This document shows positions 1 through 18,275 of a DNA stretch of 64,000 nt, piece after piece. Numbering within the stretch: the first letter of the stretch is position 1; every line of letters starts with the position of its first letter. The notes under the pieces are model-generated. The model had not been told where the DNA came from. It ran no database searches and worked only from the letters and a program-made list of their open reading frames with translations. Made by a program: the position numbers and the translations under genes. This DNA comes from an uncultured bacterium (GTDB lineage: Bacteria > Omnitrophota > Omnitrophia > Omnitrophales > Aquincolibacteriaceae), in assembly GCA_964434115.1 (NCBI GenBank), contig CAYSSX010000001.1, positions 85,571 through 149,570 of the forward strand, written 5' to 3'.

Positions 1-66
1 AGTCCAACGCTGGATCCAGAAATTTCCCTGGCTCAACCATCAGCGCCGCCGCTACAGGCATTTTGA
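1..66 (+). CDS. 3' end (about 22 codons) of an unidentified gene entering from upstream; stop TGA at 64-66
   Basis: Frame-1 open reading from window edge to TGA 64-66; too short to assign function. Confidence 0.25.
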   Translation, partial: SPTLDPEISLAQPSAPPLQAF

Positions 67-73
67 ACGTTTT

Positions 74-736
74 TTGGCTTTGGCCCTGATTTCGTTTGCC
101 TGCGGGTTTTTTATGGGGGCCGCGGCCACGCTGGAAACGCACCACGACCCGGTCAAGGCTTTGGGACTTAAAGAAACACGGCCCGGGTTTATGGATTGGT
201 TCCGCAGCACGTTTGCGCCCGTGGTCACGGTTCCCGGCCATCAGCTTGACGGCAGCTTTGTGTTTGCGGATTTTGAATCCGTGGGGGATTTCAGTTTATG
301 GAAAACCGAGGCCGCTTACCTTGAGGTGGCGCAGGAAAATTTTTCCCAAGGCAGTCACTCGGTCAAAATTTCCTACCACAACAACACGCGCTTGTCGGCA
401 GTCACCATGGAAAGTTATTTCAACAGCCGCTACGCGCTCTCCGACTGGTCGGGGTACCGGGCACTGGCTTTCTACCTCTACAACCCTCAGGAAACGCGTG
501 AACGGATTATTATTCAGATCAAGGACCGCCGGGGAAAGCGTTACAAGGAAGACCTCGTGATGGACCCGGACCGCGGCACGAATTTCGTGCTGGACCTTGA
601 CCGCATCCGCAAAGAAATCGACATTCACAGGATTGAGCACATCAACCTGTTTGTCTGGGATTCCAAAGAAGAGAAAGAATTCTTCCTCGACCACCTCCGC
701 CTGCTTCCTGTGAATGAAGGGGGGAAGAACGGATGA
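74..736 (+). CDS. Hypothetical secreted/membrane-anchored single-domain protein, paralogous to the N-terminal extracytoplasmic domain of the downstream 1119-aa protein
   Basis: ORF uses TTG at 74 (alternative ATG at 113). Hydrophobic N-terminus ALALISFACGFFMGAAA. Shares motifs DGSFVF(A/S)DFE, SDW(S/T)GY..L.F and EF(F/Y)(L/F)D.(L/I)RL(L/I)P with residues about 110-260 of the next ORF. Stop overlaps next start (ATGA). Confidence 0.6.
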   Translation: MALALISFACGFFMGAAATLETHHDPVKALGLKETRPGFMDWFRSTFAPVVTVPGHQLDGSFVFADFESVGDFSLWKTEAAYLEVAQENFSQGSHSVKISYHNNTRLSAVTMESYFNSRYALSDWSGYRALAFYLYNPQETRERIIIQIKDRRGKRYKEDLVMDPDRGTNFVLDLDRIRKEIDIHRIEHINLFVWDSKEEKEFFLDHLRLLPVNEGGKNG

Positions 737-3700
737 GGTTTTCTTCGCTGAAAAATATCCTGCTTGTGGCGGCCAGCAAGCTGCGGATTCTCGCGGGCTC
801 TCTTTTTCCGCCACCGCCCGCAGAGCCGCCTTCTTCCGGAGGCAAACCCGGCCGGCGGCGCCGCCACAAAATCCCGAACATGCCGGTGCTGCTGCTGATC
901 TGCCTGGCTTCGGGGGTGATCGCGGGGTATGCGACCACCTTGGCTATTCTTAAAACCGCGGATGCGGTGGTTCATGCGGGTGAAAATTCCGTGCACCTGA
1001 TCCGGTTTGTGTTTGGAAAATCCATTCCGCTTGTGGGGAAAATATCAGATGGAAGTTTTGTTTTTTCGGATTTTGAAAAGCCGGGCAGTGAGAAAGCCTG
1101 GATGCCGATCGGAGCCTCGTTTGAAAGCACGGACCGTTTTCCCTCGCAGGGCGCGCGCACCGGGCATGTTTATTTTTCCTCCAAGGCCCGGCAATCCACC
1201 CTGATTCTTGATGATTTGCTGAAGAGCCGCAAAGGCGGCAGTGACTGGACGGGGTATAAGTCGCTATTTTTCACGGTCTTCACACCGGTCAAGGAAGAGG
1301 TCCGGCTTTCCATGCAGATTACCGACCTGTGGGGAAAACAATACCGGGAAATGATGAAATTTTCAGGCGGCCGCGGTGTTTCCATTTCAATCCCTCTGGA
1401 AAAAATCGCGGGGGTTGTGACCCTTTCGAAAATTGACACGCTTGCTTTTTCCATCACGGATGAAAAAGAAGACCGGGAATTTTATTTTGATGACATTCGT
1501 TTGATTCCCAAAGGCAAACGCGAACCTTTCGGTGCCGTTTCGGGCGGTGAAGCTTCGCAGGCTCAAGCCCGGAATGTGCCGCTCGAAAAGCGGAAGGTGA
1601 ATTTCTTTGATTACGATTTCAAGTCCCGCAAGGCGGCCTGGACTTTGGGGCAGGCCGGGCCTCTGAAAGATATTGTGAGGGTTCCTTTTGTGGTCAAAAA
1701 CGAAACTCCGTACCCCTGCCGTTTTTGTTCGGTGGAAGGCGCGCTTCCGTTTCCCGCCGGAGAATTAAAGGACCTTGAAAAAATGAGGCTGCACACACCC
1801 AAGGGCGAGGAAATTGCTTTTCAGCCGCGCGTTTTGTCCCGCTGGCCGGATGGTTCTGTGCGCTGGCTGGCTCTTTCCTTTGAAGAGTCTCTCGGATCCT
1901 GGCAGGGCACGGGTTACTTTTTGGACTACGGTGCCGGGATCCGGCGGATGGCCGCTCCGGAAAGCCGTCTGAAAGTCAGGGAAGACGCCCAGTCGGTGGA
2001 AGTGGATACCGGGGTTTTGCGGTCCGTGCTTGACCGGAATGCCTTTTTTCTTTTTTCCAAAGTTTTTGTGGATGAAAACGGCGACAGTGTTTTTGAAGAC
2101 ACGGAGCAGCGGGTTTCAGACGCCTCGCTCAGTCTTGTTTTCAGAGGCAAGCAATTCCGGACGGATCTGTCCCGGGCCGACTATAAGCTCGAGGTTGAAG
2201 AAAAGGGGCCGCACCGCGTGGTGATCCGCGCCGAAGGCTGGTTCAAATCCGAAGAGGGCAGCCGGTTTTGCAAGGCCATTGTCCGCTACTATTTTTACGA
2301 GGGCAAAAGCGAGGTCAAGATTGCCCACACGCTGATTTATACGGGGTACCCGGAAAACCGCTTTTACGGAGAGTATGAGGGTTTGGACCTTCCGGCCAAC
2401 GAAACCGTGGAATCTTTCGGCATCCAGGTGCCGCTGAAGGGCTGGAAAGAAGACGAGCCTTTGGCTTTGCGTCTTGGCCGTCATGACGCGCCTCCGCTGG
2501 AGCTTGCGGCCAATGAAAAAGTCCGCCTGGTCCAGAAGGGCTGGGAGCAGTCGGTTCTGTATAAAGGCCCGGAAACTTTGGAAAACCAGGGGCTTTTTTC
2601 CGGATGGGCGGAAGTCTCCTCGCCCGTGCGCGGTCTTTCCGTCTCGGTCCGGCGGTTCCGCGAAAATTATCCCAAGGCCTTTGGGTTTGACCCCGCGAAG
2701 CAGGCACTGGAAATTGACCTTTGGCCCGCGGAGCAGGGGCCGCTTGATTTGTCCACAACGGCCAAGGCCTTGGGCCCTGGGGCCGCGGCCCGGGGCAATG
2801 CCTTTGGTCTGGGGAAAACCCACGAAATGCTTTTTTACTTTCACCGCGGCAACGCGCGCGATTCGCTGGAAAAAATGGAAAGCTTTTCGCGCCGCCTTCT
2901 GATCCGCAGCAATCCGTTTTGGGCGGATGCCACGGGCGCGCTGGGCCGTCTTTTTCCTGCCGATAAGCGCTATCAAAAACAGGAACTCATGCTTGAAGAA
3001 TTATTTGATTGGGCGGACCGTCACCCGAAATACTTTCAATGGTACGGCATGATTAATTTCGGAGACACGCTGACCTGGTGGCGCAGCAAGGACGAGGAAA
3101 AAGATTACGGCGAGTTCGGCTGGCATCCGGAGGGCCGCTGGGGCTGGTACAACGCGGAAGGCGTGGGAACGCACACCGGCAGTCTGCTTCAGTTTGTCCG
3201 CAGCGGGAAGTGGAAGTATTTTGAATTCGGGGAAAATCTCGCGCGCCATATTTTTGACATCGATACCATTCACTACAACACAATCGCCGAAGACCCGCGC
3301 CTTAAAAAAGTGCTGAACGATGAGTTCTCCCAGCCCGGATCCATGCACCGCCACAACGGCGACCACTGGGGCGGGCGCAGTGATGAGGCCAGCCATACCA
3401 ATCTGAACGGGATCCTTCTTTATTATTACCTCACGGGGGATGAACGGGCCTGGGACGTGGCCCGTGAGATTGGAGAGTTTTTTCTTAAAGAACGTTTTAC
3501 TTATGCGGGGCACCCTGACATCGCCCCGCACCGCGGCCTCGCCAACGCTCTCTGGGGAGATGTCCTGATGTTTGAGGCCACGGGCGATGAACGGTACAAA
3601 AATGCCGCGGATAAACTCATTGAAATTTTCTTAAAGGGGCAGCAGCCGGACGGAAGTTTTCTGGAAAATTACAATCCCCAGAAAGATTCCTGGTCCGGTG

Positions 3701-4092
3701 AAAAAGAAGAGTTATTCATGTCGTGGTATGACGTGGGCGCCTTTATCAGTTATCATGAACTCACTCAGGATGTGGCGGTCAAGGAAATGCTCCTCAAACT
3801 GGTCAGGTACCTGGCGAAAAGCGAATCTTCAGGCCCCGTGATTCTTCATGGGCTTGCTTACGCTTATCTGATATCCCATGACGCGGAACTGATCAAGCTA
3901 GCGGAGAATTATCTGGCCGTGATTTTGAAAAACCAAATCAACTCCGAAAATCCCGTGCTGGACGGTTTGATTTACGATAAGCCTATTTACCACAGGCCCA
4001 ATATTTACCTCTACACGGTTCCCTATGTCTTCGGGGCTTTGGAGGAAGCTTACATTCAGGAGAGGAAGGCCGCCGCGGCGGCGCAGGTATGA
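733..4092 (+). CDS. Large (1119 aa) membrane-anchored multidomain protein. Pro/Arg-rich N-terminal tail, one TM helix, beta-domain shared with ORF 74-736, long middle region, and a C-terminal about 380-aa W/Y-rich domain with duplicated LTGDER(A/Y) motifs. Putative glycan hydrolase/lyase-like protein of the EPS locus.
   Basis: Long uninterrupted ORF. RBS-like GAAGGGGGGAAG before ATG 733. TM segment PVLLLICLASGVIAGYATTLAIL. Paralogy to upstream ORF. C-terminal motifs WYGMINFGDTLTWW, HRHNGDHWGGRSDEASHTNLNGILLYYYLTGDERAW and MFEATGDERYKNAADKL resemble repeat helices of alpha/alpha-toroid carbohydrate-active enzymes (inference, not verified). Sits immediately 5' of deacetylase/GT2/exosortase genes. 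Confidence 0.7.
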   Translation: MRFSSLKNILLVAASKLRILAGSLFPPPPAEPPSSGGKPGRRRRHKIPNMPVLLLICLASGVIAGYATTLAILKTADAVVHAGENSVHLIRFVFGKSIPLVGKISDGSFVFSDFEKPGSEKAWMPIGASFESTDRFPSQGARTGHVYFSSKARQSTLILDDLLKSRKGGSDWTGYKSLFFTVFTPVKEEVRLSMQITDLWGKQYREMMKFSGGRGVSISIPLEKIAGVVTLSKIDTLAFSITDEKEDREFYFDDIRLIPKGKREPFGAVSGGEASQAQARNVPLEKRKVNFFDYDFKSRKAAWTLGQAGPLKDIVRVPFVVKNETPYPCRFCSVEGALPFPAGELKDLEKMRLHTPKGEEIAFQPRVLSRWPDGSVRWLALSFEESLGSWQGTGYFLDYGAGIRRMAAPESRLKVREDAQSVEVDTGVLRSVLDRNAFFLFSKVFVDENGDSVFEDTEQRVSDASLSLVFRGKQFRTDLSRADYKLEVEEKGPHRVVIRAEGWFKSEEGSRFCKAIVRYYFYEGKSEVKIAHTLIYTGYPENRFYGEYEGLDLPANETVESFGIQVPLKGWKEDEPLALRLGRHDAPPLELAANEKVRLVQKGWEQSVLYKGPETLENQGLFSGWAEVSSPVRGLSVSVRRFRENYPKAFGFDPAKQALEIDLWPAEQGPLDLSTTAKALGPGAAARGNAFGLGKTHEMLFYFHRGNARDSLEKMESFSRRLLIRSNPFWADATGALGRLFPADKRYQKQELMLEELFDWADRHPKYFQWYGMINFGDTLTWWRSKDEEKDYGEFGWHPEGRWGWYNAEGVGTHTGSLLQFVRSGKWKYFEFGENLARHIFDIDTIHYNTIAEDPRLKKVLNDEFSQPGSMHRHNGDHWGGRSDEASHTNLNGILLYYYLTGDERAWDVAREIGEFFLKERFTYAGHPDIAPHRGLANALWGDVLMFEATGDERYKNAADKLIEIFLKGQQPDGSFLENYNPQKDSWSGEKEELFMSWYDVGAFISYHELTQDVAVKEMLLKLVRYLAKSESSGPVILHGLAYAYLISHDAELIKLAENYLAVILKNQINSENPVLDGLIYDKPIYHRPNIYLYTVPYVFGALEEAYIQERKAAAAAQV

Positions 4093-4874
4093 AGAACGCT
4101 GTCCCTGTTCTTAATTATCACGGCATCCAGTCCCGGCCCGGTGAGTACGGCTGGCATACGGGTGAAAAAATTTATGTTTTGCCTTTGGCCTCGTTTCAGG
4201 AACAGCTGCAGGGGATCGCCCGGAAACACGGCGCGCTTGCGAGCGAAGATCTGTCTTCTGCCGCGACAAAAGAGGGCGTGCTTCTGACTTTTGATGACGG
4301 CCATATCAGCCATTACGAACACGCGCGGCCGGCCCTCAAGGCTGCGGGATTTACAGGGATTTTTTTTATTTCCGCGGGGATGATCGGAGAAAAAGATTTT
4401 ATGGACGCGGCCCAGCTGCGCGAAATGGCCAGCGATGGTTTTGAATTGGGATCCCACGGTTATCACCATGTGCCCTTGCCCGGCCTTTCCAGCGCTCAGC
4501 TGAAGGTGGAGATGCAAGACTCCCGGAAAAGACTTGAGGATGTGACCGGCCGCGAAATTCGCAGCTTTTCCATCCCGCGGGGTTTTTATCATCCCCGGAT
4601 CCGGGCCGCGGCCGAAGAAGCCGGCTACCGTTTTTTGTTTACCTCGCATTTTGGCCTTCACACGACCGGTACGGATTTGTTTTATATCCGCAGGATGGCA
4701 GTCACTCAGGACACCACGGCGGGGCAGTTTGAATCCTGGCTTCAAGGCGATTTGGGCGCGATGCGCTGGGTGGAAGAAGCCAAGGAAAAGGCGCGCCAGT
4801 GGATCGGGCCCAAAGGGTATGAGAAAATGGCTCTTTTGAAGGCCCGCCTCCGGGGCGCGGGCAGGGGAATTTAG
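4089..4874 (+). CDS. Polysaccharide deacetylase, NodB-homology domain (PEP-CTERM/exosortase-locus type)
   Basis: Motifs LTFDDGHISHYE and GSHGYHHVPL (NodB Asp-Asp and His-His metal-binding motifs). ATGA overlap with upstream gene. Location in exosortase locus. Confidence 0.85.
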   Translation: MKNAVPVLNYHGIQSRPGEYGWHTGEKIYVLPLASFQEQLQGIARKHGALASEDLSSAATKEGVLLTFDDGHISHYEHARPALKAAGFTGIFFISAGMIGEKDFMDAAQLREMASDGFELGSHGYHHVPLPGLSSAQLKVEMQDSRKRLEDVTGREIRSFSIPRGFYHPRIRAAAEEAGYRFLFTSHFGLHTTGTDLFYIRRMAVTQDTTAGQFESWLQGDLGAMRWVEEAKEKARQWIGPKGYEKMALLKARLRGAGRGI

Positions 4875-4875
4875 A

Positions 4876-6018
4876 ATGATTCTTTTTTGGCTGTCCGTAC
4901 TGCTTGTCCTTTATACCTACGCCGGATACCCGCTTATTCTCATGTGGCTTGCGCGGGTTTCCTCTCGCCCCGTGAAAAAAGGCTCTTATGAACCGCGCGT
5001 GAGCGTGATTGTCTCCGTGTATAACGAAGAGCGGTTTATCGCCGACAAGATTAACAATCTCCTGGCGTTGGATTATCCGGCGGAAAAAATAGAAATCCTG
5101 ATTGGCTCGGACGGCGGCACGGACAGCACGGATGAAATTGTTTCCGGCATCCACGACCCGAGAATCCGGTTTTTTAGATTTGTCGCGAATCTTGGAAAGC
5201 CGCATGTTTTAAACGGGCTGATCGCGGAAGCTCACGGCGCAGTGCTTGTGTTCACCGATGCCCGCCAGCGGTTTGAACCTCAAGCGGTCCGCAAGCTGGT
5301 TGAAAATTTTTCAGACCCTGATGTGGGCTGTGTTTCCGGAGAACTGTATTTTGAGGAAGCCCGCGGCAGCGGCGTGGCGCAAGGGATGGACGCTTATTGG
5401 AAGTATGAAAAATTTCTCCGTAAAAAAGAAGGGGAGATTGCTTCCATGCTGGGGGCCACCGGCGCCATTTACGCGGCCCGGGCCGATCTTGTCCCGACGC
5501 TTCCCCTGAATATCCTTGTGGACGACATGTACATTCCTCTGGCGATTGTTGCGAAAGGGTACCGCGCGGTTTTTGAGAGTGAAGCGCGGGCCTACGACCT
5601 TGCCTCCAGCAAAGGGACACAGGAATTGAAACGAAAGGTCCGCACGCTGTCGGGAAATTTCCAGATTTTTGCGGCCTTTCCAGACTTGTTAAAACCGTGG
5701 AAAAGCCCGGTGGCCTGGCAGCTCTTGTCGCATAAATTTTTGCGTCTTATGGTGCCGTACTTTTTGATGACCGCATTCCTGAGTAATCTTTTTTTATGCG
5801 CCCATCCTTTTTACTGTTTCTTGCTGCTGGTGCAGGCTGCTTTCTACAGTCTTGCGGCATTTGAGGCCTTGCGCGTGCACTTTTTTCCGCAGATGAAACC
5901 TTTCCGGCCCGCGGCGCTTCCCTACATGTTCTGCCTGCTCAATTTTTCTGCCGCGGCCGGGCTTCGTCAGTACCTCAAAGGGCAGCCCAAAGCCGCGTGG
6001 GACAAGGCTTACCCATGA
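4876..6018 (+). CDS. Family 2 glycosyltransferase, membrane-embedded processive type (N-terminal TM helix plus C-terminal TM bundle)
   Basis: VSVIVSVYNEERFI...LIGSDGGTDSTDEI (GT2 DxD region) and DDMYIPL. Hydrophobic N-terminus and C-terminal multi-TM region, as in PgaC/cellulose-synthase-like synthases. Confidence 0.85.
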   Translation: MILFWLSVLLVLYTYAGYPLILMWLARVSSRPVKKGSYEPRVSVIVSVYNEERFIADKINNLLALDYPAEKIEILIGSDGGTDSTDEIVSGIHDPRIRFFRFVANLGKPHVLNGLIAEAHGAVLVFTDARQRFEPQAVRKLVENFSDPDVGCVSGELYFEEARGSGVAQGMDAYWKYEKFLRKKEGEIASMLGATGAIYAARADLVPTLPLNILVDDMYIPLAIVAKGYRAVFESEARAYDLASSKGTQELKRKVRTLSGNFQIFAAFPDLLKPWKSPVAWQLLSHKFLRLMVPYFLMTAFLSNLFLCAHPFYCFLLLVQAAFYSLAAFEALRVHFFPQMKPFRPAALPYMFCLLNFSAAAGLRQYLKGQPKAAWDKAYP

Positions 6019-6123
6019 TAACAATGATCGTTCCTGCTGTTTTCTGTTGTTCTCCGATCGAAGGAGTTTTTCCTCAAACGCGCTGATTTTGCGAATTCAA
6101 ATTTCATCTGCTAACCTTGCGCA

Positions 6124-6999
6124 TTGTTTAATTCTCAAACTATGACCTCAACATCCGAACAAACCCATTTCAGCTGGAAAAAGCTTCTGCTTCCGGGCCT
6201 TGCCTGCGCGGGGCTTTTGGCCTGGGTCTATGCCCCTACCTTTGAGTGGATGGTGGACCGCTGGTCGGTCCGCGATTCATATTACGGACACGGTTTTTTG
6301 ATCCCGCTGGTTTCTCTGTTCTGGATTTGGCAGAAGCGCGCGGAAATCGCTAAGGCCGTACCCGAGTCCAGCGCCTGGGGCTTTCCTGTTTTGGCCGCAG
6401 CCGCGGTGCTTCAGATTTTTGCCGCTGTTTTCAGGGTTTATTTTATTTCTGCTTTTTCTTTTGTGTTCATGCTTTTCGCGGGCGTTCTTTTGCTGGGCGG
6501 TCTGCGCCTTCTCAAACTTGTGTGGTTTCCTGTTTTCTTTCTGACCTTAATGGTCCCGCTTCCGCTTTTAATGATTTCTGAAATCACCCTGAAAATGAAA
6601 TTCCTTGTGACTGAAATGGCGGTGCATTGCCTGAACGCAGTCGGCCTGCATTCCGAGCGGCAGGGCAGTTACATTGTTCTTCCGAACACGTTCCTGCTGG
6701 TCGGAGACCCTTGCAGCGGCCTGCGCTCCTTTCTTTCTTTTCTTTGTCTGGGGTTTGTTTTCGCTTACGGCGGAAGGACCGCGTGGTGGGGAAAACTGGT
6801 GCTTGTTTTTGCCGGGCTGCCGCTTGCCATCCTTTCAAACTTGATGCGGGTTTTCTTTTTGGGGCTTGTCGCGGAAGTCTACGGCCAGGAAGCCGCGGGC
6901 GGCAAAATCCACGACGTTTCCGGAATTGTTGTCTTTATTATCTCGTTCTGCATTTTTATGGTGATCCGTCAAAAGCTGGAGGGGTCGCATGCAGGCTAA
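6124..6999 (+). CDS. xrt: Exosortase (PEP-CTERM protein-sorting transpeptidase)
   Basis: Polytopic membrane protein. Catalytic-Cys motif GDPCSGLRSF and conserved Arg in SNLMRVFFLG, typical of the exosortase/archaeosortase family. Adjacent EpsI gene and PEP-CTERM substrates. Confidence 0.85.
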   Translation: MFNSQTMTSTSEQTHFSWKKLLLPGLACAGLLAWVYAPTFEWMVDRWSVRDSYYGHGFLIPLVSLFWIWQKRAEIAKAVPESSAWGFPVLAAAAVLQIFAAVFRVYFISAFSFVFMLFAGVLLLGGLRLLKLVWFPVFFLTLMVPLPLLMISEITLKMKFLVTEMAVHCLNAVGLHSERQGSYIVLPNTFLLVGDPCSGLRSFLSFLCLGFVFAYGGRTAWWGKLVLVFAGLPLAILSNLMRVFFLGLVAEVYGQEAAGGKIHDVSGIVVFIISFCIFMVIRQKLEGSHAG

Positions 7000-7603
7000 A
7001 ACAGCCAAAGGCCTCATCCCGTTTGTGCTTGTGCTGGGCGCCTTGAGTTTCTTCCGCCTCGCGCTTCCTTCCGCAATGACTATTGCCGGGGAAGTCAGCC
7101 CGTTTTTTAAAACCTTTCCCCTCGAAATCGGCGCATGGAAAGGCGAAGAAATTGTTCCGGATGAACGCGATCTTCAAATTCTGGAAACGCGCAATGTCTT
7201 GTCGCGCAATTACCGCAATGCGGCCGGCGACTCTTTGCATCTTTTTCTGGTCAGTTCCAAAAAAGACCGCCGCGTCGCGCATCCGCCGGAAGTCTGTTAT
7301 GTTTCCTCGAATTTCAACGTGGTCAATGCCCGTGAGACCACGATTCAGGGGCCGGATGCCAAGATCATTCCGGTAAAGGAGTTTACGGCTGTTCCGGAGC
7401 GTCAGCCGGACAATGCCCAGGAAGTTTTGTACCTTTACAAGATCGGAAACCGGTTTACGACTAATTACTATGCCCAGCAGCTTCAGTTCGCTTTGGATAA
7501 TTTGTCGAAGAATGATTCCGAGGTTTTGATGATTCGTCTGGCAGGAAGAAACAAGGCTGTTCTTGAGGAATTCCTCAAAGAATTAATCCCGGTTTTGAAT
7601 TAA
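6989..7603 (+). CDS. epsI: EpsI-family exosortase-associated protein
   Basis: N-terminal TM anchor LIPFVLVLGALSFF. Motif AHPPEVCYVSS matches the conserved H-P-E-x-C signature of EpsI proteins. 11-nt overlap with exosortase stop. Confidence 0.75.
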   Translation: MQAKTAKGLIPFVLVLGALSFFRLALPSAMTIAGEVSPFFKTFPLEIGAWKGEEIVPDERDLQILETRNVLSRNYRNAAGDSLHLFLVSSKKDRRVAHPPEVCYVSSNFNVVNARETTIQGPDAKIIPVKEFTAVPERQPDNAQEVLYLYKIGNRFTTNYYAQQLQFALDNLSKNDSEVLMIRLAGRNKAVLEEFLKELIPVLN

Positions 7604-7902
7604 CCTTCCCGGGCAGCGTCTCAACTCTAACGCTGCAGACTGCAAAAGACAAAGGACACTTCGTTCACGCGAAAGGCTTTGCCTTGAGGCGAACGGGATG
7701 TCCTTAAAAGATGTAAGTTTATGAAAATGCAGAGGTTGTCAAAATCGCCGGTTATTTAAACAAATCTAGACAAATGTTGTTTTTTTTAGACATTCTGAAA
7801 TTGAAACTAAGATAAGTGACTTTGATGACAAAGCTTTTTAATTGTAAGTCATTCAAAATAAACAAGTTACACAATGTTTTAAACAGGTTAGTTTGAAATT
7901 AG

Positions 7903-7920
7903 TTGGCATGGAAAGTGCAT
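7903..7920 (+). promoter_or_regulatory. Sigma-54 (RpoN) -24/-12 promoter candidate upstream of sugar transferase / PEP-CTERM genes
   Basis: TTGGCATGGAAAGTGCAT = TGGCAT(G)-N4-(G)TGCA with exact GG-N10-GC spacing versus consensus TGGCACG-N4-TTGCA. Lies in a 330-nt AT-rich intergenic region, about 55 nt before ATG 7977. Confidence 0.5.
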
Positions 7921-7976
7921 AGAGTCTGAATGCTGAAGTGCACTTATTCAAATATCCCCGTCATAAGGTGAGCAAA

Positions 7977-8732
7977 ATGAAAACGTTATGGAATGAAGAA
8001 GTTAAACAAGGGTTTAACGCTCTGAGGGCTGATATCCAGCGAGATTATATGCTTCGCCGATATCAGATGCTCTCGAAGGGTGAAACCCCTGTTGAAGAAA
8101 AGCTGATGCACCATTTAACGCATGCCTATACGGCGGTGGTGACATCCTGGCGGCGTTTTTTGAAGCGCGTTTTGGATCTTTCGGTGTCTTTGATGGGGTT
8201 GACCTTGGGCGCGCCTCTGTTCCTGTTGATCGCCCTTGTCATTAAGCTCGACTCCCGCGGACCTATTTTTTACAAACAGCTTCGAGTGGGGCTTCGCGGC
8301 CGTACCTTTTACATCTATAAATTCCGCAGCATGCGTCAGGATGCGGAAGTCAAAAGCGGCCCGGTGTGGGCTAAAGAGAACGATCCGCGCATTACTCGTA
8401 TCGGGAATTTTCTCCGCAAAACGCATTTGGACGAGCTTCCTCAATTCATCAATGTCTTAAAAGGGGAGATGAGCCTTGTCGGTCCCCGCCCTGAGCGCCC
8501 GCACTTCGTGAAAGAATTGCGCAAAGTGATTCCGCATTATGACAAGCGCCATTATGCCAAACCTGGGGTTACCGGGCTTGCGCAGATCCGCCAGCGCTAC
8601 GATGAAACAACTGAAGATGTGAAGAAGAAAGTACGTTACGACGTGCTTTATATCAAAAAGATGTGTCCGATTCTCGATATTAAGGTGATCGCCATGACGG
8701 CGTTTACCATGATTCTGAGAACGGGCAGATAA
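7977..8732 (+). CDS. Exopolysaccharide polyprenyl-phosphate sugar transferase (bacterial sugar transferase family, WbaP/EpsB C-terminal-domain type)
   Basis: Motifs GPRPERPHF, PGVTGLAQI and YDVLYIKKMCPILDIKV, plus a TM helix LGAPLFLLIALVI. Start chosen at ATG 7977 (GGTGA RBS 8 nt upstream); the ORF could start at 7938. Confidence 0.85.
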   Translation: MKTLWNEEVKQGFNALRADIQRDYMLRRYQMLSKGETPVEEKLMHHLTHAYTAVVTSWRRFLKRVLDLSVSLMGLTLGAPLFLLIALVIKLDSRGPIFYKQLRVGLRGRTFYIYKFRSMRQDAEVKSGPVWAKENDPRITRIGNFLRKTHLDELPQFINVLKGEMSLVGPRPERPHFVKELRKVIPHYDKRHYAKPGVTGLAQIRQRYDETTEDVKKKVRYDVLYIKKMCPILDIKVIAMTAFTMILRTGR

Positions 8733-8796
8733 GAGAATGATTCCAGCTAGCGGGAATTACTTCTCTAATTTAAAAAAGAAAGGAGCTAGAAACAGC

Positions 8797-9504
8797 ATGA
8801 AAAAAACTCTGAGCTTGTTCGCACTCATCGCCGGATTGGTTATTCTCTCCAGCGCACGTGCGTACGCAGCTGTTCCGGTGATTGACGGAAGCGTCAGTCC
8901 CGCCACTGAATGGGATAATACTGGTTATAACTATTATCTCAACATCAGTGATCCGAACGAAGTTGATGTTCCTGATTCATACGACATCGCGTCAGCGACG
9001 TTGCTTCAGGAAATTGAAGGCTTCGGATTTGGAGATTCTAACGCTGCCAACGACGGGATTTACCTCCTGATCACGACCTATGCGACTCCTTCCTTCGTGG
9101 ATTTCACGTTGGGCGGTCCTAAGGTTACCGTGTATTTGGATGGTGATTTCGACGGCGATGGTATCGTTGATTTCTCACTTCAGCACACAGCTCTTGCTAA
9201 TGGAACCGGCCAGACGGTTACTGTAACGTTCAACGTTTTTGGACCTACAGGCGACCTTGTTGCAAACGGTGGTTCTTTCGCAGTGAACGGTGTGCTTGAG
9301 TATTTCATTCCTCACACGGGTTTCAATACCCCCAGCGTTCCTTTCCCTGGTGCGTTTGTTGGATACATCACCTATGATAATGGTGGTCTTCCTCCAGATG
9401 ATATCGCGACTGGCACCTTGGTTCCTGAGCCGAGCAGCATGCTTCTCTTCGGAGGCGCGTTGTTGGGTCTTTTGGGTGTGAATTTCAAGCGTTTCTCCAA
9501 GTAG
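8797..9504 (+). CDS. PEP-CTERM sorting-domain protein (exosortase substrate)
   Basis: AAAGGAG RBS before ATG 8797. Signal peptide MKKTLSLFALIAGLVILSSARAYA. C-terminus VPEPSSMLLFGGALLGLLGVNFKRFSK (PEP motif, TM helix, basic tail). Internal DGDFDGDGIVD Ca-binding-like motif. Confidence 0.85.
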   Translation: MKKTLSLFALIAGLVILSSARAYAAVPVIDGSVSPATEWDNTGYNYYLNISDPNEVDVPDSYDIASATLLQEIEGFGFGDSNAANDGIYLLITTYATPSFVDFTLGGPKVTVYLDGDFDGDGIVDFSLQHTALANGTGQTVTVTFNVFGPTGDLVANGGSFAVNGVLEYFIPHTGFNTPSVPFPGAFVGYITYDNGGLPPDDIATGTLVPEPSSMLLFGGALLGLLGVNFKRFSK

Positions 9505-9553
9505 TTTTCTTTCAATAGTTGCTATAATCCTCAAACATTATAGTTAGCTATTT

Positions 9554-9594
9554 GGTAAGAGCTCCTTACCCTGGCCCCCGAAAGGGGGCCAGGG
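9554..9594 (+). terminator. Tandem hairpins after the PEP-CTERM gene (putative intrinsic terminator)
   Basis: GGTAAG-AGCTC-CTTACC followed by a perfect 11-bp GC stem CCCTGGCCCCC-GAAA-GGGGGCCAGGG (9569-9594). No clean downstream T-run, so efficiency is uncertain. Confidence 0.45.
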
Positions 9595-9654
9595 ACTACT
9601 TGAATAATAAATGAAACCGTAGTACAAAGAAGGCAGTGAATCTTAAGGAAGGAG

Positions 9655-10485
9655 GTGGCCCGGCACATGGCACGTCACCCCGAAAATAATAAGCCACAGC
9701 AAAGCCTGCACCGCGAAACACTTATCGCGATTGCAAAGCAGCCCATTATTCCCGCGCTCTTCATACTTCTGGCAATTTTCCAAGCAGCAGGCTTGACAGC
9801 CCTTTTTCTTTCGCATTCCGAGCCGTTTTCGAGCATTTTGGGACCGATTATCCGCCGTTTTTGGGGGGAGCGTTTTCTGCATTATCCGGAAAACTTTCTT
9901 TTGCTGCCCAAGCTTTTTGGCCACTCTGAAATGGTGATCCTGACCCTTTTCGGTCTTCTGGTCACAGGCATTACGATTCAGCTTGTAGGCGCCGCCCGGA
10001 CCGGGGACAGCCGTGTCACGGCCGTGACCGCTTTTTCCGGCACCTTGAAAAAGTATCTGGGGCTGGCCGCTCTGTGGATTGCTTTGTTTTTCCTGCTTCG
10101 GACAGTTTCGAGAGCGGTACTGCCGTTTCTTCCCCCGCAGATTCCGGTCCATTACGCGGGTCTTCTGGCGGTTTTTTTATCCACGCAGGTTCTTACTGCG
10201 CTGCTCTTCCCGGCAATTCTTCTTTCTGGAAAAGGGTATTGGAAAGCCCTTGCGGAAGGTTTCTTGCTCTCCGTGAAGAATTTCCCCGTGCTGTTTGCGG
10301 CCTTATTCATTCCGGTGGCTTTAAGCGTGGCGGTCTCGTTCCTTAGGTCTTTGTCGCCGTCGATTTCGCATGATAACCCGGATTTTGTGCTCGTGATTTT
10401 GTACGGCAGTATTTTGGTTTCAACCGTTGTGGATCTCTACATCACCTCCGCGACGGCTATATTCTATTTGAAAGTGAGGAATTAA
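9655..10485 (+). CDS. Hypothetical polytopic integral membrane protein (about 6 TM)
   Basis: Long ORF with repeated hydrophobic helices. No recognisable catalytic motif. Embedded between two PEP-CTERM genes. Confidence 0.55.
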   Translation: MARHMARHPENNKPQQSLHRETLIAIAKQPIIPALFILLAIFQAAGLTALFLSHSEPFSSILGPIIRRFWGERFLHYPENFLLLPKLFGHSEMVILTLFGLLVTGITIQLVGAARTGDSRVTAVTAFSGTLKKYLGLAALWIALFFLLRTVSRAVLPFLPPQIPVHYAGLLAVFLSTQVLTALLFPAILLSGKGYWKALAEGFLLSVKNFPVLFAALFIPVALSVAVSFLRSLSPSISHDNPDFVLVILYGSILVSTVVDLYITSATAIFYLKVRN

Positions 10486-10492
10486 AATTCCC

Positions 10493-11212
10493 ATGAAACA
10501 TTTTAAACGTTATTTGGCGGGCTTCCTTTGCGCGGTTCTTCCGAGCTGGAGCCTTTACGCGGCGGTGCCCGATATGCCGCTGGTTTTCACGCCCTCCGCT
10601 CTTCCGATTGAAGAGCCGGCTGAAAAATTCATTGGCTGGTATGACCTGGTCTATCAGGATCAGGTTGCGCCTCCCACAGTTCCGCAGGCGATTGTGGACG
10701 CCTTATTTCCCGACCAGGAAATTGCGCTTCCTCAGATCTCTGGCGGTGTTTCCGTGCCTCTCGAAAAGCTTTCTGATGCGGACCTGGAAGAAGAACTTCA
10801 GGACGAACTCCTTTTAGATGAGGATGCTGAAGGCGAGCATTCTTCGAAGAAGCGGCTGGTTGTCGGCCTTCTTATTCTCAGTGCAGCGCTCGGGGCGCTT
10901 CTCTTACTTCTTTCGGGTTCTGGCGGCGGCTCCGGTTCTGGAAGCGGCGGCTCGTCAGGAAATGGTGGTGACTCCAACGGTTCCACGCCTCCTCCTGTGG
11001 GCGGCGGCGGTACCGGCGGCGGGAATGGAACAGGCCCGGGTACGGGACCTGGTACCGGCGGTGGCGGCGGCCCTGGTGTTGGCGGCGGTCCCGGCGGTGG
11101 TGGTATTACTCCTTTCTCATTTCCGAACAATGTTCCCAATAACCCGGAACCTTCGACCCTGTTTTTGATTGGCCTTGGATTGTTGTTGCCTTTTTTGCGT
11201 AGAAAAGGATAA
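10493..11212 (+). CDS. PEP-CTERM sorting-domain protein, acidic N-terminal region plus long Gly/Pro-rich low-complexity region
   Basis: Signal peptide MKHFKRYLAGFLCAVLPSWSLYAAVP. C-terminus NPEPSTLFLIGLGLLLPFLRRKG. Internal SGSGGGSGSG...GTGPGTGPGTGGGGGPG tract. Confidence 0.8.
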   Translation: MKHFKRYLAGFLCAVLPSWSLYAAVPDMPLVFTPSALPIEEPAEKFIGWYDLVYQDQVAPPTVPQAIVDALFPDQEIALPQISGGVSVPLEKLSDADLEEELQDELLLDEDAEGEHSSKKRLVVGLLILSAALGALLLLLSGSGGGSGSGSGGSSGNGGDSNGSTPPPVGGGGTGGGNGTGPGTGPGTGGGGGPGVGGGPGGGGITPFSFPNNVPNNPEPSTLFLIGLGLLLPFLRRKG

Positions 11213-11221
11213 TCCGAGTTC

Positions 11222-12634
11222 ATGAGAAAAACGTTTTTCCTTTTTTTGCTCGCGGCCTTTGCTTTTTCAGGCTGCGGTAAAAACTATCTTGCCGAGAAAG
11301 AGTTCTTTAAAGCAGAACAGCTGCTGAAGGGACTCAATCTTTCCCAGAGCCTAGATCCGCTCGACCAGGCTGTTGATGCCTTTCGCTCGGTCGCGGACCG
11401 CTATCCAGGCACACCCAAGGCGCTTGAAAGTCTCCGCCTCATTTCCAATATGCGTCTTAAACAAAAAAAGTATGAGGAGGCGCGAGAGGCCATGACGGAA
11501 GTCATTCAGAGTTTCGCGGCTTCCCAGGATGCTATTGCAGATGCCCGTTACCGTATCGGGGAAATCTACGAGATTGAAGAGAAGTGGGATGCTGCCGAAA
11601 AGTATTTTTGGGAACTTTCCGAGTACAGCCCCCTTCACGCAAAAGGCCTTTACGCTCCGATCAAAATTCTCCTCAATTACCGCAGGACTAAAGATGACAA
11701 AGGCTTTGAACGCGCGTATGTCAAAGCGTTGGACCATTACGAAAGTCTCCTTAAACAGGTAGGCCCCATTGAAGCCTCCGCGCCTGTCCGGAATTATTTG
11801 GGAATGGTTCAGATGATTCACGAAGATGCGGACAAGGCTCTTGCGACCTGGCTTTCCATCCCGCTGGATTTTCCCAAAAGCCCGCATGCCTCCATGGCGA
11901 TTCTGGCCGCCGCCGAATTGAACTGGAAAAATAAGGAATACGAAAAAGCCGAAGCTTTATATCAGCGCTTTTTCACGGAATACCCGGGGCACCCCTTGAC
12001 TGGAAGAACCGCGATGACTCTTGGCCTTGCCTATCACAGCAAAGGGGACTTTACCAAATCCCGTGAATCTTATCAGCGCGCACTGGACAGCGGCGGTTAT
12101 GCAGAAAAATCCCCTGAGAGATCGGAATTGAAACTTCTCATGGCGCGCAGTTATCAGGATGAACTGCTCTGGGATGAGGCCGACGCCCTTTATCAGGAGA
12201 TCGAATTGGCTTACCCCAATTCGTCAGCGGCGCTTCAGGTCCCGTTAATGCGCGCAGACCATTTTAATGAAGTGGGTGAGACGGCTCAGGCGCTGGATAT
12301 TCTTGATAAAGCCATCCGGCATTATGAAGTTTTGGCGGCGAATCAAAAGGATCCGAAAATTGTGAGTTACGCCCAGCGTTTTCGCTCGCAGGCTTTAGCC
12401 CGTAAAGGGGCCTGGAAAGAAATTGTTGATGATATTGACAAACGCATGGCTGAAGAGACAACGCCGGTCCGCAAAGGCCGCTGGCTTTTCTTAAAAGCGC
12501 TTATGACACAGAATCGTTTAAAGGATTCGCCCAAGGCCATTGAGTTATACGAAAGTTTTCTGAATCTTTACCCCGGTCATCCCTTAGAAGCCCGGGCAAA
12601 GACCCAGCTCGAACTCCTCCGCAAGCCCGCTTAA
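11222..12634 (+). CDS. TPR-repeat lipoprotein
   Basis: Lipoprotein signal with lipobox FSGC (MRKTFFLFLLAAFAFSGCG). Multiple TPR-like helical repeats (YPGTP/YPGHP tetratricopeptide motifs). Cf. PEP-CTERM-system TPR lipoproteins. Confidence 0.75.
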   Translation: MRKTFFLFLLAAFAFSGCGKNYLAEKEFFKAEQLLKGLNLSQSLDPLDQAVDAFRSVADRYPGTPKALESLRLISNMRLKQKKYEEAREAMTEVIQSFAASQDAIADARYRIGEIYEIEEKWDAAEKYFWELSEYSPLHAKGLYAPIKILLNYRRTKDDKGFERAYVKALDHYESLLKQVGPIEASAPVRNYLGMVQMIHEDADKALATWLSIPLDFPKSPHASMAILAAAELNWKNKEYEKAEALYQRFFTEYPGHPLTGRTAMTLGLAYHSKGDFTKSRESYQRALDSGGYAEKSPERSELKLLMARSYQDELLWDEADALYQEIELAYPNSSAALQVPLMRADHFNEVGETAQALDILDKAIRHYEVLAANQKDPKIVSYAQRFRSQALARKGAWKEIVDDIDKRMAEETTPVRKGRWLFLKALMTQNRLKDSPKAIELYESFLNLYPGHPLEARAKTQLELLRKPA

Positions 12635-12805
12635 CCCCCCCCGTATTAGCTTCTATAAACAATCCCCTAGTTTACTTTTTTAGACTTTTCTCGGTATACA
12701 AAACTAATCAAAAACAATCTTTTTAAAGCAATTTAAAACAACCTCTATGGGGTCATAACATATTGAAATAAAAGCACTTACGATTATATATTTCGCCCGC
12801 AAGCC

Positions 12806-12833
12806 TTGAATGGGGAAGTTCTTGTGATATAAT
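12806..12833 (+). promoter_or_regulatory. Sigma-70-like promoter candidate for the GAF histidine kinase gene
   Basis: TTGAAT -N16- TGATATAAT (extended -10 TGn-TATAAT) about 85 nt upstream of ATG 12918. Confidence 0.35.
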
Positions 12834-12917
12834 CCACACATCGTTTTCCAAAAGATTCATCATTGTGATTAAAAAAAACAACTTTCTGAATTCAAACCGG
12901 AAAAACCAGGACAGCCA

Positions 12918-14192
12918 ATGACCTCAGCGGTTCAAAGTTCCGAAAAAAGTTCCAGGCGTTTAGAATTTCTTCAGGAAGAACTGCACTCCACATCGCCTCA
13001 TTATTCTAATCCGGATCATTTCCTCGAATTCGTTCTCGATTCAACGCTTTCTGTCGTAAAGGCGCATGCAGGTTCTTTGTTTCTTTGGGATGAATCCAAA
13101 AAGGCTTTGGTCTTGAAGTCTTCCCGCGGTCCTTACGGGAACCGCCTTAACCATGTTCATGTCCGTCTGCGTGAAGGTATTTCGGGATGGGTGGGCGGCA
13201 ACGGCCGTTCTGTTCTTGTGAAAGACATTCAGGCCGATCAGCGCTTCAGCCAGTTTAAGCGCGCCGGGCAGTACAAAACGGACTCCTTTATTTCTCTCCC
13301 TTTAATTGCATCCAATAAACTTGTGGGTGTTATCAATGTGACCGAGCGGGAAAGCCTGAGCGCGTTTACTGAAGAGGATTTTGAACGCGCGCGCGTTTTT
13401 GCCCAGTACATTGCGATCGCTTATGAAAACATGCGTCTTGCAGCGAAGCACAAGATTGAAAATCAACAGCTTGGAGACCGTGTGATGCGCTTGGAGCAAA
13501 CCTTGCGCGATCAAGAAGCTCTGGTGTCGGTCGGCCGGCTTGCTTCCAATCTTGCCCATGAGCTTAATAACCCGCTGGACTCCATACGCCGCTATGTGAA
13601 TTTGGCCCTTGATCAAGTGATGGAAGATTCGGTTGCGAGACAGTACATTCTGAATGCCAAAGAGGGGATCCGCCGCGCGGTTCAAGTCATACGCGGCCTC
13701 CTTCAATATACAAGAGAAACCGGGCGCATTGAACGCCGGGAATCGGAAATTCATCGCGTGCTCAGAGACAGTCTTGAAAGCGCGGTGAAGGATCAAAGTT
13801 TTGGAAGCATTAAAATCGAAACGAATTTTAAAGCCCCTCCCGCGATTGTCTCGGATTGCGGACTGATGTTTGTTTTTAGAAATCTTTTCAAAAATGCCCA
13901 TTACGCCATGAAAGGCGCCGGAACCTTGACGGTGGAAACCCATTATGAAAATGAACGCGTGGTTATTTGCGTTTCGGATACGGGCTCGGGAATTCCAGAA
14001 GCTGTAAAACGCCGTCTTTTTGAACCCTTCTTTTCCACAAAAAAGGATGAGGGTACCGGGATTGGTTTAACGATATGCCGCGAAATTGTTCAGAAATGCG
14101 GAGGAGACATCTCCTTCGAAAGCCAGATGGGTGTGGGCACTCAATTCTTGATTCAAATTCCCTGTAAGAAAAAGGAAATTCCAGCCGCGTGA
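12918..14192 (+). CDS. Cytoplasmic GAF-domain sensor histidine kinase
   Basis: N-terminal GAF-like region. HisKA box LASNLAHELNNPLDSIRRY. HATPase G-boxes VSDTGSGIPE and GTGIGLTICREIV. No TM segments. Confidence 0.85.
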   Translation: MTSAVQSSEKSSRRLEFLQEELHSTSPHYSNPDHFLEFVLDSTLSVVKAHAGSLFLWDESKKALVLKSSRGPYGNRLNHVHVRLREGISGWVGGNGRSVLVKDIQADQRFSQFKRAGQYKTDSFISLPLIASNKLVGVINVTERESLSAFTEEDFERARVFAQYIAIAYENMRLAAKHKIENQQLGDRVMRLEQTLRDQEALVSVGRLASNLAHELNNPLDSIRRYVNLALDQVMEDSVARQYILNAKEGIRRAVQVIRGLLQYTRETGRIERRESEIHRVLRDSLESAVKDQSFGSIKIETNFKAPPAIVSDCGLMFVFRNLFKNAHYAMKGAGTLTVETHYENERVVICVSDTGSGIPEAVKRRLFEPFFSTKKDEGTGIGLTICREIVQKCGGDISFESQMGVGTQFLIQIPCKKKEIPAA

Positions 14193-15553: not shown

Positions 15554-15704
15554 CCTGGCTGGAGGCCCTTTTCCGCGCCGTAAAAAACCCGTTGGCTTTC
15601 CCGCGAAAATCGCTATAATTAGTTCTTTCTAACTGGCCCCTTAGCCACGTGTTGCGACATTTGCCGCGAGCTTTCATAAAAATATCATCAAAAAGGAATT
15701 GCCC

Positions 15705-16904: not shown

Positions 16905-16936
16905 CCACGGTCAAAAGCCGGAAACCTGAGGTGTTT

Positions 16937-17722: not shown

Positions 17723-18234
17723 CCATTTTGATCACCATCCTCCACGTCATTGTTTGCTTTGTTCTCATTGCGGTGATTCTCCTTCAGGCGGGCCGCGGTC
17801 AAGGGCTTACGGGCGCCACTTTTGGAAGCGGCAACGTGCAGTCTCTTTTCGGCACCAAGGCCTCTGTTTTTCTGACCAAGGCAACCTCGGTGTCAGCGAT
17901 TTTCTTTATGGTGACGTGTATCGCGCTTGATCTCATTGAAATCCACAAAAGCAAAAGCCTTCTTGAAACGTCCCGGAGCGCGGCTCCGCTGGATGTGGAT
18001 CAAATTAAGAAAGCGCTTGAGAAAGTTAAAAATGAAAGCCGTGAGAAGGCTGATGCCCTTGCGGTGAAAGCGGAAACCGCGGCCGGTCAGGCTGCGGATG
18101 CGGTTCAGGCCCAATCCGCCGAAGTGAAAGACGCGGCCGGACAAGCCGCCGCCGCGGCTCAAGAAGCCGCGGGTGATGCCAAGCAGCAAGTTGAACAAGC
18201 TGCCGGATCCTTGGCCGAAGCTGCCAAGTCCTGA
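17719..18234 (+). CDS. secG: Preprotein translocase subunit SecG with about 95-aa Ala/Gln/Glu-rich C-terminal extension
   Basis: N-terminal 75 aa match SecG (two TM helices, LLQAGRGQGL...FGT loop). Conserved pgk-tpiA-secG synteny. ATGA overlap with tpiA. Confidence 0.8.
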   Translation: MTILITILHVIVCFVLIAVILLQAGRGQGLTGATFGSGNVQSLFGTKASVFLTKATSVSAIFFMVTCIALDLIEIHKSKSLLETSRSAAPLDVDQIKKALEKVKNESREKADALAVKAETAAGQAADAVQAQSAEVKDAAGQAAAAAQEAAGDAKQQVEQAAGSLAEAAKS

Positions 18235-18275
18235 TCCCACAGCTTTTCCTCGGTTGTTATTAAAAGCCGGAAGGT

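Follow-up and report, generated by a model that had tools for sequence, protein, structure and literature searches.

A candidate sigma-54 control region in a conserved exosortase and glycan locus of Omnitrophota

Gene content and extent of the locus

We analysed an exosortase locus at the start of a 64,000-nucleotide (64-kb) stretch of DNA from an uncultured bacterium of the Omnitrophota (GenBank assembly GCA_964434115.1, contig CAYSSX010000001.1, positions 85,571 to 149,570), referred to here as the window. The window contains the downstream part (nucleotides (nt) 1-15553) of a glycan and protein-sorting locus of at least ~25 kb. Our main new result is a conserved candidate control region, consisting of a sigma-54 type -24/-12 site and an upstream TGT-N12-ACA dyad, before an operon which starts with a polyprenyl-phosphate glycosyl-1-phosphate transferase (PGT) gene and includes two PEP-CTERM genes. 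Every gene in region 1-15553 is on the plus strand, and the genes are tightly packed. Since housekeeping genes (pgk, tpiA, recG, rsmD, plsX, fab, smc, recA, alaS, his, trp and dnaK) occupy the window from 15.7 kb on, we placed the end of the locus at 15553. A first-pass annotation had described a complete-looking locus at 74-12634; the functional unit in fact runs on to 15553, and includes a histidine kinase and its adjacent regulator.

The first gene of the window encodes a membrane-anchored protein resembling a carbohydrate-binding module (CBM), of which the 3' 244 codons are present (1-736; PF17992 Agarase_CBM, 27.5 bits; transmembrane (TM) helix at amino acids (aa) 24-42). It is followed by genes encoding an anchored PcRGLX-like protein of 1119 aa (733-4092; TM aa 52-70), a CE4/NodB polysaccharide deacetylase (4089-4874), a membrane GT2 glycosyltransferase (4876-6018), the exosortase (Xrt; 6142-6999), EpsI (6989-7603), the small PGT (7977-8732), PEP-CTERM protein 1 (8797-9504), a polytopic membrane protein (9667-10485), PEP-CTERM protein 2 (10493-11212), a tetratricopeptide repeat (TPR) lipoprotein (11222-12634), a soluble histidine kinase (12918-14192) and a sigma-54-dependent response regulator of the bacterial enhancer-binding protein (bEBP) type (14189-15553). 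Hidden Markov model (HMM) searches recovered all of the genes listed in the first-pass annotation, but that list omitted the CBM-like and PcRGLX-like genes of the first 4 kb; region 74-4092 codes for these two proteins, and contains neither the NodB nor the GT2 gene. The G+C content is 0.47-0.49 at 6001-10000 and 12001-14000, lower than the 0.52-0.54 of the neighbouring locus sequence and of the remaining window.

The 5' end of the window required reinterpretation. A gene thought to end at nt 66 is an alternate-frame open reading frame (ORF). Frame 2 is open from nt 2, its translation (VQRWIQKFPWLNHQRRRYRHFERF...) aligns from residue 5 onward with the 245-248-aa CBM orthologues of two related loci, L005 and L013, and DNA alignment with the same loci puts the window start within the CBM gene. 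The window therefore begins inside the locus, and we estimate that the CBM-like gene starts ~10-30 nt upstream of it. The tail SPTLDPEIS, read in frame 1, is similar to the C-terminal end of the relatives' Wzy_C protein; we attribute this to chance, as the DNA alignment places the window start in the CBM gene. The locus is thus cut by the window, with syntenic relatives holding further glycan genes directly upstream, and it was not complete as had been supposed. The accompanying suggestion that it continues upstream was correct, since the CBM-like gene is truncated and the loci of the relatives extend further. Overall, the earlier description was largely right and is partly confirmed, with an incomplete 5' end and an incomplete locus.

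Conservation of the locus in related Omnitrophota

We read six related contigs, and the upstream part of the locus is known from these relatives rather than from the source genome. Related loci are labelled here with their exosortase identity to the window: L005 (80%), L008/L012 (60%), L010 (59%), L015 (52%) and L014 (41%). L013 was found via its 67%-identical PcRGLX protein, and a genome-contig search returned one locus, at 50% identity. Every named homologue was from Candidatus Omnitrophota/Omnitrophica, and we found no relevant literature on exosortase or PEP-CTERM in Omnitrophota/Omnitrophica.

The core gene order is deacetylase, GT2, Xrt, EpsI, PGT, PEP-CTERM, membrane protein, TPR, GAF kinase and bEBP. 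L005 and L013 are collinear with the window gene by gene, and the core is also kept in L008/L012, L010 and L015. PcRGLX-like orthologues are present at the equivalent position in L005, L008/L012, L010, L013 and L015, and the position of the TPR lipoprotein is conserved across all relatives. L014 retains Xrt, EpsI, PGT, three PEP-CTERM genes, the membrane protein, the TPR protein and the bEBP/GAF sensor, with a GH123 hydrolase substituting for the PcRGLX protein. Because the locus is conserved next to pgk, which adjoins it in the window, L005 and L008/L009, we regard it as a stable, vertically inherited chromosomal feature.

Across the six syntenic loci, the upstream genes include Wzy-like genes, many GT4 genes and another deacetylase. 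Upstream of the CBM gene, L005 and L013 carry a Wzy_C gene (469-470 aa) ending at the CBM gene start, then GT4, deacetylase, GT1/GT4, GT2 and a second Wzy_C gene. The upstream region of L004 adds a triple-GT4 fusion and a sulfotransferase gene (1222-2070) amid the GT4 genes. A 476-483-aa protein lacking Pfam matches, also upstream in the relatives, was considered as a flippase and rejected, as it consists of a single TM anchor and a soluble domain. Two of the related loci carry additional genes. In L010, a 7-kb minus-strand block (11462-18239) between epsI and the PGT operon encodes a GT2, a MacB-type ABC transporter, a TP_0789-like protein, ThiF and a nitroreductase-like protein; in L014, genes of toxin-antitoxin or defence type (a nucleotidyltransferase/HEPN pair, and AbiEii with a partner) surround xrt-epsI at 8870-13058.

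The exosortase falls below all curated subtype cutoffs

The exosortase (285 aa) cleared the generic TIGR02602 model (153.4 bits against a cutoff of 105.55) and PF09721 (206 against 25.7, aligned over positions 2-250 of the 254 in the profile). Its ORF is open from TTG 6124 and we set its start at 6142; this start, and those of PEP-CTERM protein 1 (8797) and the membrane protein (9667), were revised from orthologues and identical database proteins. A database protein is 100% identical to the exosortase. Exact sequence look-ups gave no hit for the 1119-aa protein or the GT2, and for EpsI and the exosortase the hits were confined to Logan contigs of 1-3 kb. Cys191 (in PCSGLRS), Arg236 and His257 are invariant across 18 exosortase sequences. 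Cys, Arg and His are the invariant exosortase residues pointed out by Haft et al. 2006 (PMC1569441). The previously cited motifs, GDPCSGLRSF in the exosortase, HPPEVC in EpsI and two PEP tails, were all confirmed. The exosortase co-occurs with PEP-CTERM substrates, encoded by two genes 1.2-3.5 kb downstream.

EpsI consists of an N-terminal anchor (TM aa 8-26) and a periplasmic domain. In this protein KDRRVAHPPEVCY is invariant in five orthologues, and the HPPEVC motif is also invariant. It passed at the generic level (TIGR02914, 71.7 against 42.8; PF11984, 88.5 against 26.1), and failed both the V-type model (58.7 against 228) and the B-type model (45.3 against 220). The xrt and epsI genes are separate, unfused and overlapping (by 11 nt), as had been annotated. 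However, this is not a departure from the known arrangement, as the founding locus, that of Methylobacillus sp. 12S, already has epsI directly downstream of epsH, and it is the fused form that is the variant (PMC1569441).

Subtype HMMs gave no assignment. The window exosortase scored 173.1 bits (E 7.5e-51) against a cutoff of 208 on XrtA (TIGR03109), and missed the cutoffs of XrtW (170.3 against 425), XrtD (159.6 against 400), XrtV (143 against 313), XrtB (115.2 against 275) and XrtC (74.1 against 300). Ten relatives (38-79% identity) were also under every NCBIfam subtype cutoff, with XrtA scores of 146.6-187.0 and XrtW or XrtD scores at times equal or higher. Because we did not find a standard subtype with all canonical partner genes just upstream, the core claim of the first-pass annotation, that the locus does not map cleanly onto a described exosortase subtype, stands for the window and for these ten relatives.

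These scores could in principle describe an ordinary XrtA-type locus with a divergent XrtA, whose canonical partners (chain-length determinant, tyrosine kinase, Wza-like exporter and PrsK) are encoded further upstream or elsewhere. XrtA is the top-scoring subtype model, EpsI adjoins the exosortase, and the locus extends upstream of the window. The order of TPR lipoprotein, kinase and bEBP parallels PrsT/PrsK/PrsR, and both the PGT (264.2 bits on the XrtA-system model TIGR03013) and the bEBP (394.7 bits on PrsR) give substantial scores. However, these scores are below the respective cutoffs of 393.35 and 502.6, as are those of the deacetylase on TIGR03006 (27.4 against 276.2), the kinase on PrsK (96.3 against 300) and the TPR lipoprotein on PrsT (32.9 against 312.2). 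The shortfall on XrtA itself is shared by 11 of 11 clade members (147-187 against 208), with XrtW and XrtD scoring similarly. Furthermore, the kinase lacks a membrane domain, no NCBIfam model matches the L005 Wzy_C protein, and Pfam records contain no Wza/Wzc-type domain up to 16 kb upstream in L004, L012, L013 and L015. We therefore consider a divergent XrtA locus unlikely. The locus works like an XrtA/PrsKRT-type exosortase polysaccharide system, but scores below the thresholds for XrtA and the other curated subtypes, and is best described as an Omnitrophota lineage-specific variant, not as a new mechanism.

A conserved sigma-54 type element and dyad precede the PGT operon

TTGGCATGGAAAGTGCATA lies in the 373 nt that separate epsI from the PGT gene. 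The sigma-54 type -24/-12 element, TGGCATGGAAAGTGC, is located at 7904-7918, and its core TGGCAY-N6-TGC is the sole exact occurrence in the 64 kb. The element is found at the equivalent position before the PGT gene in every related locus covering it, including L014 and, with one mismatch at -12, L015, and its conservation reaches relatives down to 41% exosortase identity. In L010 it stays with the PGT gene despite the 7-kb insertion that displaces the PGT block. We called this site by the exact core pattern together with conservation, instead of by a scan allowing two mismatches. A further sigma-54-like match at 9411-9426 lies within PEP-CTERM coding sequence, where it encodes GTLVPEP, and was dismissed as coincidence.

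Upstream of the -24/-12 element is a T-rich TGT-N12-ACA dyad, TGTTGTTTTTTTTAGACA (7775-7792), which is a candidate enhancer or upstream activator site. The dyad is located 105-121 nt upstream of the -24/-12 element in the window, L005, L013, L012 and L010, and ~112 nt upstream in L015; the only match in L014 is ~165 nt upstream and out of range. The background frequency of TGT-N12-ACA is 7 per 64 kb, and the dyad columns are invariant in the alignment of related loci.

We moved the start of the PGT gene from GTG 7938 to ATG 7977, as GTG 7938 is too close to the sigma-54 promoter. The revised start has a ribosome-binding site (AAGGTGA, 7965-7971) and fits the 243-251-aa orthologues. Directly 3' of the epsI stop codon is a hairpin, GCAGCGT-N10-ACGCTGC (7613-7636), which has no T-run and is kept in L005, the closest relative; the upstream transcription unit may end here.

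The regulatory pair downstream had been described as a soluble GAF kinase with a sigma-54 bEBP rather than the membrane PrsK, and our analysis agrees. The kinase has GAF-HisKA-HATPase architecture (GAF, HisKA and HATPase_c are recorded in its orthologues) and contains no TM helix or other hydrophobic segment, and the PrsK profile aligned to it only at positions 319-679, the cytoplasmic part. The bEBP has REC-AAA+-HTH_8 (Fis helix-turn-helix) architecture and scored 469 against 714 on the AtoC model. Its sigma-54 contact loop is GSFTSA in the window, GAFTSA in close relatives and GAFTGA in L014, with the F-T core kept. This bEBP would be expected to act on the -24/-12 site. Scans for sigma-70 promoters and terminators found nothing above chance except two 10/12 promoter-like sites in the 12634-12918 gap, which weakly suggest that the kinase-bEBP pair may be transcribed separately from these sigma-70-like sites.

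Elsewhere, the window encodes another histidine kinase (46584-47900) and, after it, another sigma-54 bEBP (47904-49295). A -24/-12-like site, TGGCACGGTAATTGAT (49436-49451), in which the -12 element is GA and not GC, lies ~50 nt upstream of the dnaK ATG at 49502, and may be a sigma-54-dependent dnaK promoter.

The PEP-CTERM proteins and their neighbours

PEP-CTERM proteins 1 and 2 end in the tails VPEPSSMLLFGGALLGLLGVNFKRFSK and NPEPSTLFLIGLGLLLPFLRRKG. Both matched PF07589 (24.7 and 22.0 bits against 20.7); protein 1 also matched TIGR02595 (19.8 against 16), and protein 2 had no NCBIfam match. Searching every ORF of the 64 kb with a regular expression revealed no PEP-CTERM-like tail beyond these two. 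Protein 1 consists of a signal peptide, a conserved domain of ~185 aa and a VPEPSS-TM-KRFSK tail that is conserved in five orthologues. The domain is probably all-beta; a single-sequence structure model of the protein was too poor (pLDDT 39.8) and was not used. Protein 2 has a signal-peptide-like N-terminus, an acidic domain and, directly after a KKR motif, a strongly hydrophobic internal helix (aa 122-140); a ~75-aa linker rich in Gly, Ser and Pro then leads to NPEPST-TM-RRKG. This architecture is kept in four loci: the window (10493-11212), L005 (14363-15088), L013 (19727-20446) and L012 (20785-21501).

The 272-aa polytopic membrane protein encoded between the two PEP-CTERM genes belongs to no sequence family, with no Pfam or NCBIfam match and a failed CysZ sequence-family test. 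It nevertheless has a CysZ/CTL-like fold, with only 7-9% identity to CysZ (PDB 3TX3) and the CTL1/PNS1 transporters, and recognition of this fold is new here. Its role would be transport of a small solute or a lipid-linked species. Together with the sulfotransferase gene of L004, the sulfate-permease-like CysZ fold allows the speculation that the glycan is sulfated. The TPR lipoprotein (470 aa; YbgF-type TPR, 102.8 bits; lipobox FSGC) is an analogue of PrsT, despite its low score on the PrsT model.

The glycan genes point to a lipid-linked heteropolymer

The CBM-like protein and residues 41-259 of the 1119-aa protein share 30% identity over 222 aa, a paralogous CBM-like region, and each protein carries one N-terminal TM helix. 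The 1119-aa protein has type-II anchored architecture, in which the TM helix and the CBM-like domain are followed by a RIFT barrel, a beta-sandwich and an alpha/alpha toroid. Three PcRGLX-like domains (PF19501, PF21345 and PF21346) were matched, along with PF07944, and the match to a GH127-type toroid was weak. A PDB sequence search gave no match for this protein, which is a candidate polysaccharide lyase or hydrolase. The CE4 deacetylase (PF01522, 90.6 bits; TFDDG and HxxH in the translation) is probably cytoplasmic, since it has no signal peptide, TM helix or hydrophobic segment.

The GT2 (PF00535, 72.6 bits; PF13641 and PF13632; TM aa 8-26 and 291-329) has one N-terminal and about three C-terminal hydrophobic helices, a minimal cellulose-synthase-like architecture. 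It had been annotated as processive, but we could not sustain this: KRKVRT replaces the QxxRW motif, and the best PDB match is PcManGT (6YV7; 76 bits over residues 12-303). PcManGT (PDB 6YV7-6YV9) is likewise a minimal membrane GT2 with a similar helix arrangement, and neither protein has the Trp of QxxRW. The archaeal PcManGT binds GDP-mannose (PMC12595478), whereas the window GT2 is an Omnitrophota enzyme.

We weighed whether the GT2, deacetylase, hydrolase and TPR lipoprotein could instead form a synthase-dependent homopolymer system similar to that for poly-N-acetylglucosamine (PNAG; Pga/Ica-type), with the exosortase module merely adjacent. The Pga, Pel and Bcs synthase systems typically have a glycan-cleaving enzyme and a TPR lipoprotein as accessories, and both are present in this locus. 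The GT2 is embedded in the membrane, its catalytic domain having helices on either side, and PgaC/IcaA and PgaB were the best NCBIfam matches of the GT2 and the deacetylase. However, these matches reached only 63.8 against 422.3 bits and 49.9 against 321.9 bits respectively, and PgaC aligned to GT2 residues 2-156 only. The missing QxxRW motif and the nearest solved protein, PcManGT, do not indicate a synthase, and the deacetylase lacks an export signal. The presence of an initiating PGT (TIGR03025, 314.8 against 295.55; PF02397, 229.6), and of many GT4 and two Wzy_C genes in the relatives, makes a lipid-linked heteropolymer route most likely, and we consider the PNAG-like alternative highly improbable.

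A different possibility concerns the fate of the glycan, which might not be a free exopolysaccharide: it could be joined to a lipid anchor or to the PEP-CTERM proteins, forming a glycoprotein or envelope layer, with the Wzy_C proteins acting as ligases and not as polymerases. The Pfam Wzy_C family (O-antigen ligase) spans both ligases and polymerases, no chain-length or export genes were found near the locus in the relatives read, and the sigma-54 promoter would co-transcribe the PGT gene with those of only two dedicated substrates, one of which has a long Gly/Ser-rich linker. However, a large lyase or hydrolase suits a polymer, and in characterised floc formers PEP-CTERM proteins act with separate exopolysaccharide (EPS) (PMC9850573). 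We regard attachment as quite unlikely.

A working model for the locus

Taken together, we consider it likely that this is a vertically conserved Omnitrophota locus for cell-surface glycan and protein sorting which would work in seven steps. The small PGT would initiate a lipid-linked repeat unit (step 1), which would be extended by GT4 enzymes encoded upstream, outside the window, and by the membrane GT2 (step 2), and modified by CE4 deacetylases (step 3). Wzy_C-family proteins, seen in the relatives only, would polymerise or ligate the glycan (step 4). Outside the cytoplasm, the anchored PcRGLX-like lyase or hydrolase with its CBM-like domain, and the stand-alone CBM paralogue, would trim or bind the product (step 5). 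The two PEP-CTERM proteins would be exported by Sec and retained by their C-terminal helix, and the exosortase, via Cys/Arg/His, would with EpsI cleave at the PEP motif, leading to release or transfer into the polysaccharide layer (step 6). The sigma-54 promoter would drive transcription of the operon, which begins with the PGT gene and ends with that of the TPR lipoprotein; the adjacent bEBP, phosphorylated by the adjacent soluble GAF kinase, would activate it from the TGT-N12-ACA enhancer (step 7).

Several observations weigh against this model. Pfam records show no Wzx/MOP flippase, Wza-type exporter or Wzc/chain-length protein in the window or in the ~16 kb upstream of xrt in L004, L012, L013 and L015; the lack of visible Wza, Wzc and Wzx genes in the window had already been remarked on in the first-pass annotation. 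Only two PEP-CTERM genes were seen in the 64-kb window, and the internal hydrophobic helix of PEP-CTERM protein 2 is hard to reconcile with a simple periplasmic substrate. A sigma-54 consensus scan allowing two mismatches found 19 sites where 31 were expected; because this shows no enrichment, it is conservation that identifies the promoter. The rpoN gene was not among the window genes scanned, although the two bEBP genes of the window imply that the organism uses sigma-54. In this model the gene identities, the catalytic motifs, the synteny, the conservation of the -24/-12 element and the dyad, and the lack of a subtype assignment are observed; the order of the pathway, the link from regulator to promoter and the role of the CysZ-fold protein are inferred, and cleavage by the exosortase is a prediction for this clade.

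A more far-reaching view is that the clade represents a distinct exosortase subtype, specific to Omnitrophota, with fixed partners. Besides the separate EpsI, the small PGT, the CysZ-fold protein and the short TPR lipoprotein, these would be two cognate PEP-CTERM proteins, of which one has an additional membrane helix and a Gly-rich tether, and the regulatory pair of soluble GAF kinase and bEBP, which would act on the TGT-N12-ACA/sigma-54 promoter. These would jointly build an adhesive glycan-protein layer, possibly for attachment of cells. Omnitrophota cells are very small and reportedly host-associated. We see the case for and against this wider proposal as evenly balanced.

Other features of the window

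Beyond the locus, a Bat/MoxR-type operon at 51524-58408 encodes a BatD-like protein, a MoxR AAA_3 ATPase, a DUF58 protein, a second BatD-like protein, a VWA/BatA protein and a VWA-TPR protein. At the 3' end of the window, minus-strand genes at 59342-63683 comprise an Acyl_transf_3 acyltransferase (59342-60439), an ORF (61163-62236) and a GT4 (62325-63683), and may represent one end of another glycan locus.

Comparison with known systems

Exosortase systems are widespread, have scant biochemistry and are organised by curated subtype models, and the Omnitrophota clade falls between these models. The clade offers a compact, conserved set of partners in a phylum with no cultured model organism. 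Our results provide grounds for a subtype HMM of its own and supply a promoter-enhancer pair that can be tested, and the conserved sigma-54 control region is a useful handle for experiments; they do not indicate a new mechanism.

The Caulobacter holdfast is a Wzy-dependent adhesin pathway. The locus resembles this Hfs system in having an initiating PGT (181 bits on the HfsE model), a cytoplasmic-type CE4 deacetylase (45 bits on HfsH) and a GT2 in the window, and two Wzy-like genes in the relatives. However, these scores are far under the Hfs cutoffs, no HfsDAB-type export genes were seen in the locus, and the holdfast system has no exosortase. The adhesin pathway is thus a reasonable analogy, in the sense of a resemblance.

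The eps locus of Methylobacillus sp. 12S (epsH/epsI) shares separate, adjacent exosortase and EpsI genes in an EPS cluster (PMC1569441), but differs in phylum and in partner genes; here we compared descriptions and not sequences. In the floc-formation systems of Aquincola and Zoogloea (pepA, prsT and prsK/prsR), a sigma-54-dependent PEP-CTERM gene likewise lies beside a TPR gene, and the PEP-CTERM protein keeps EPS cell-bound (PMC9850573). Those XrtA systems come from Proteobacteria and use a PrsK located in the membrane, whereas the sigma-54 dependence of the Omnitrophota operon is predicted from conserved sequence.

The closest parallel in overall logic is with the XrtA/PrsK-PrsR-PrsT system (Haft et al. 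2006, PMC1569441). Shared features are a Cys/Arg/His exosortase, an EpsI partner, polysaccharide genes, adjacent PEP-CTERM substrates, a tandem arrangement of TPR lipoprotein, histidine kinase and sigma-54 bEBP, and a -24/-12 element with an upstream activator site before PEP-CTERM genes. Sigma-54 promoters ahead of PEP-CTERM genes accompany PrsK/PrsR/PrsT in Proteobacteria (PMC1569441), and one PEP-CTERM gene has been experimentally shown to be RpoN-dependent (PMC9850573). However, all 11 exosortases of the Omnitrophota clade are under the XrtA cutoff, the kinase is a soluble GAF protein without the PrsK membrane domain, and the TPR protein has 470 aa rather than ~900 aa and fails the PrsT model. 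The promoter here heads a multigene operon starting with the PGT gene, in contrast to single-gene PEP-CTERM operons, and the locus has PcRGLX-like, CBM-like and CysZ-fold proteins and no visible chain-length or export genes. Haft et al. 2006 left the regulation of PEP-CTERM genes outside Proteobacteria open (PMC1569441). The Omnitrophota locus indicates that logic in the style of PrsK/PrsR/PrsT exists outside Proteobacteria, with a cytoplasmic sensor in place of the membrane-bound PrsK.

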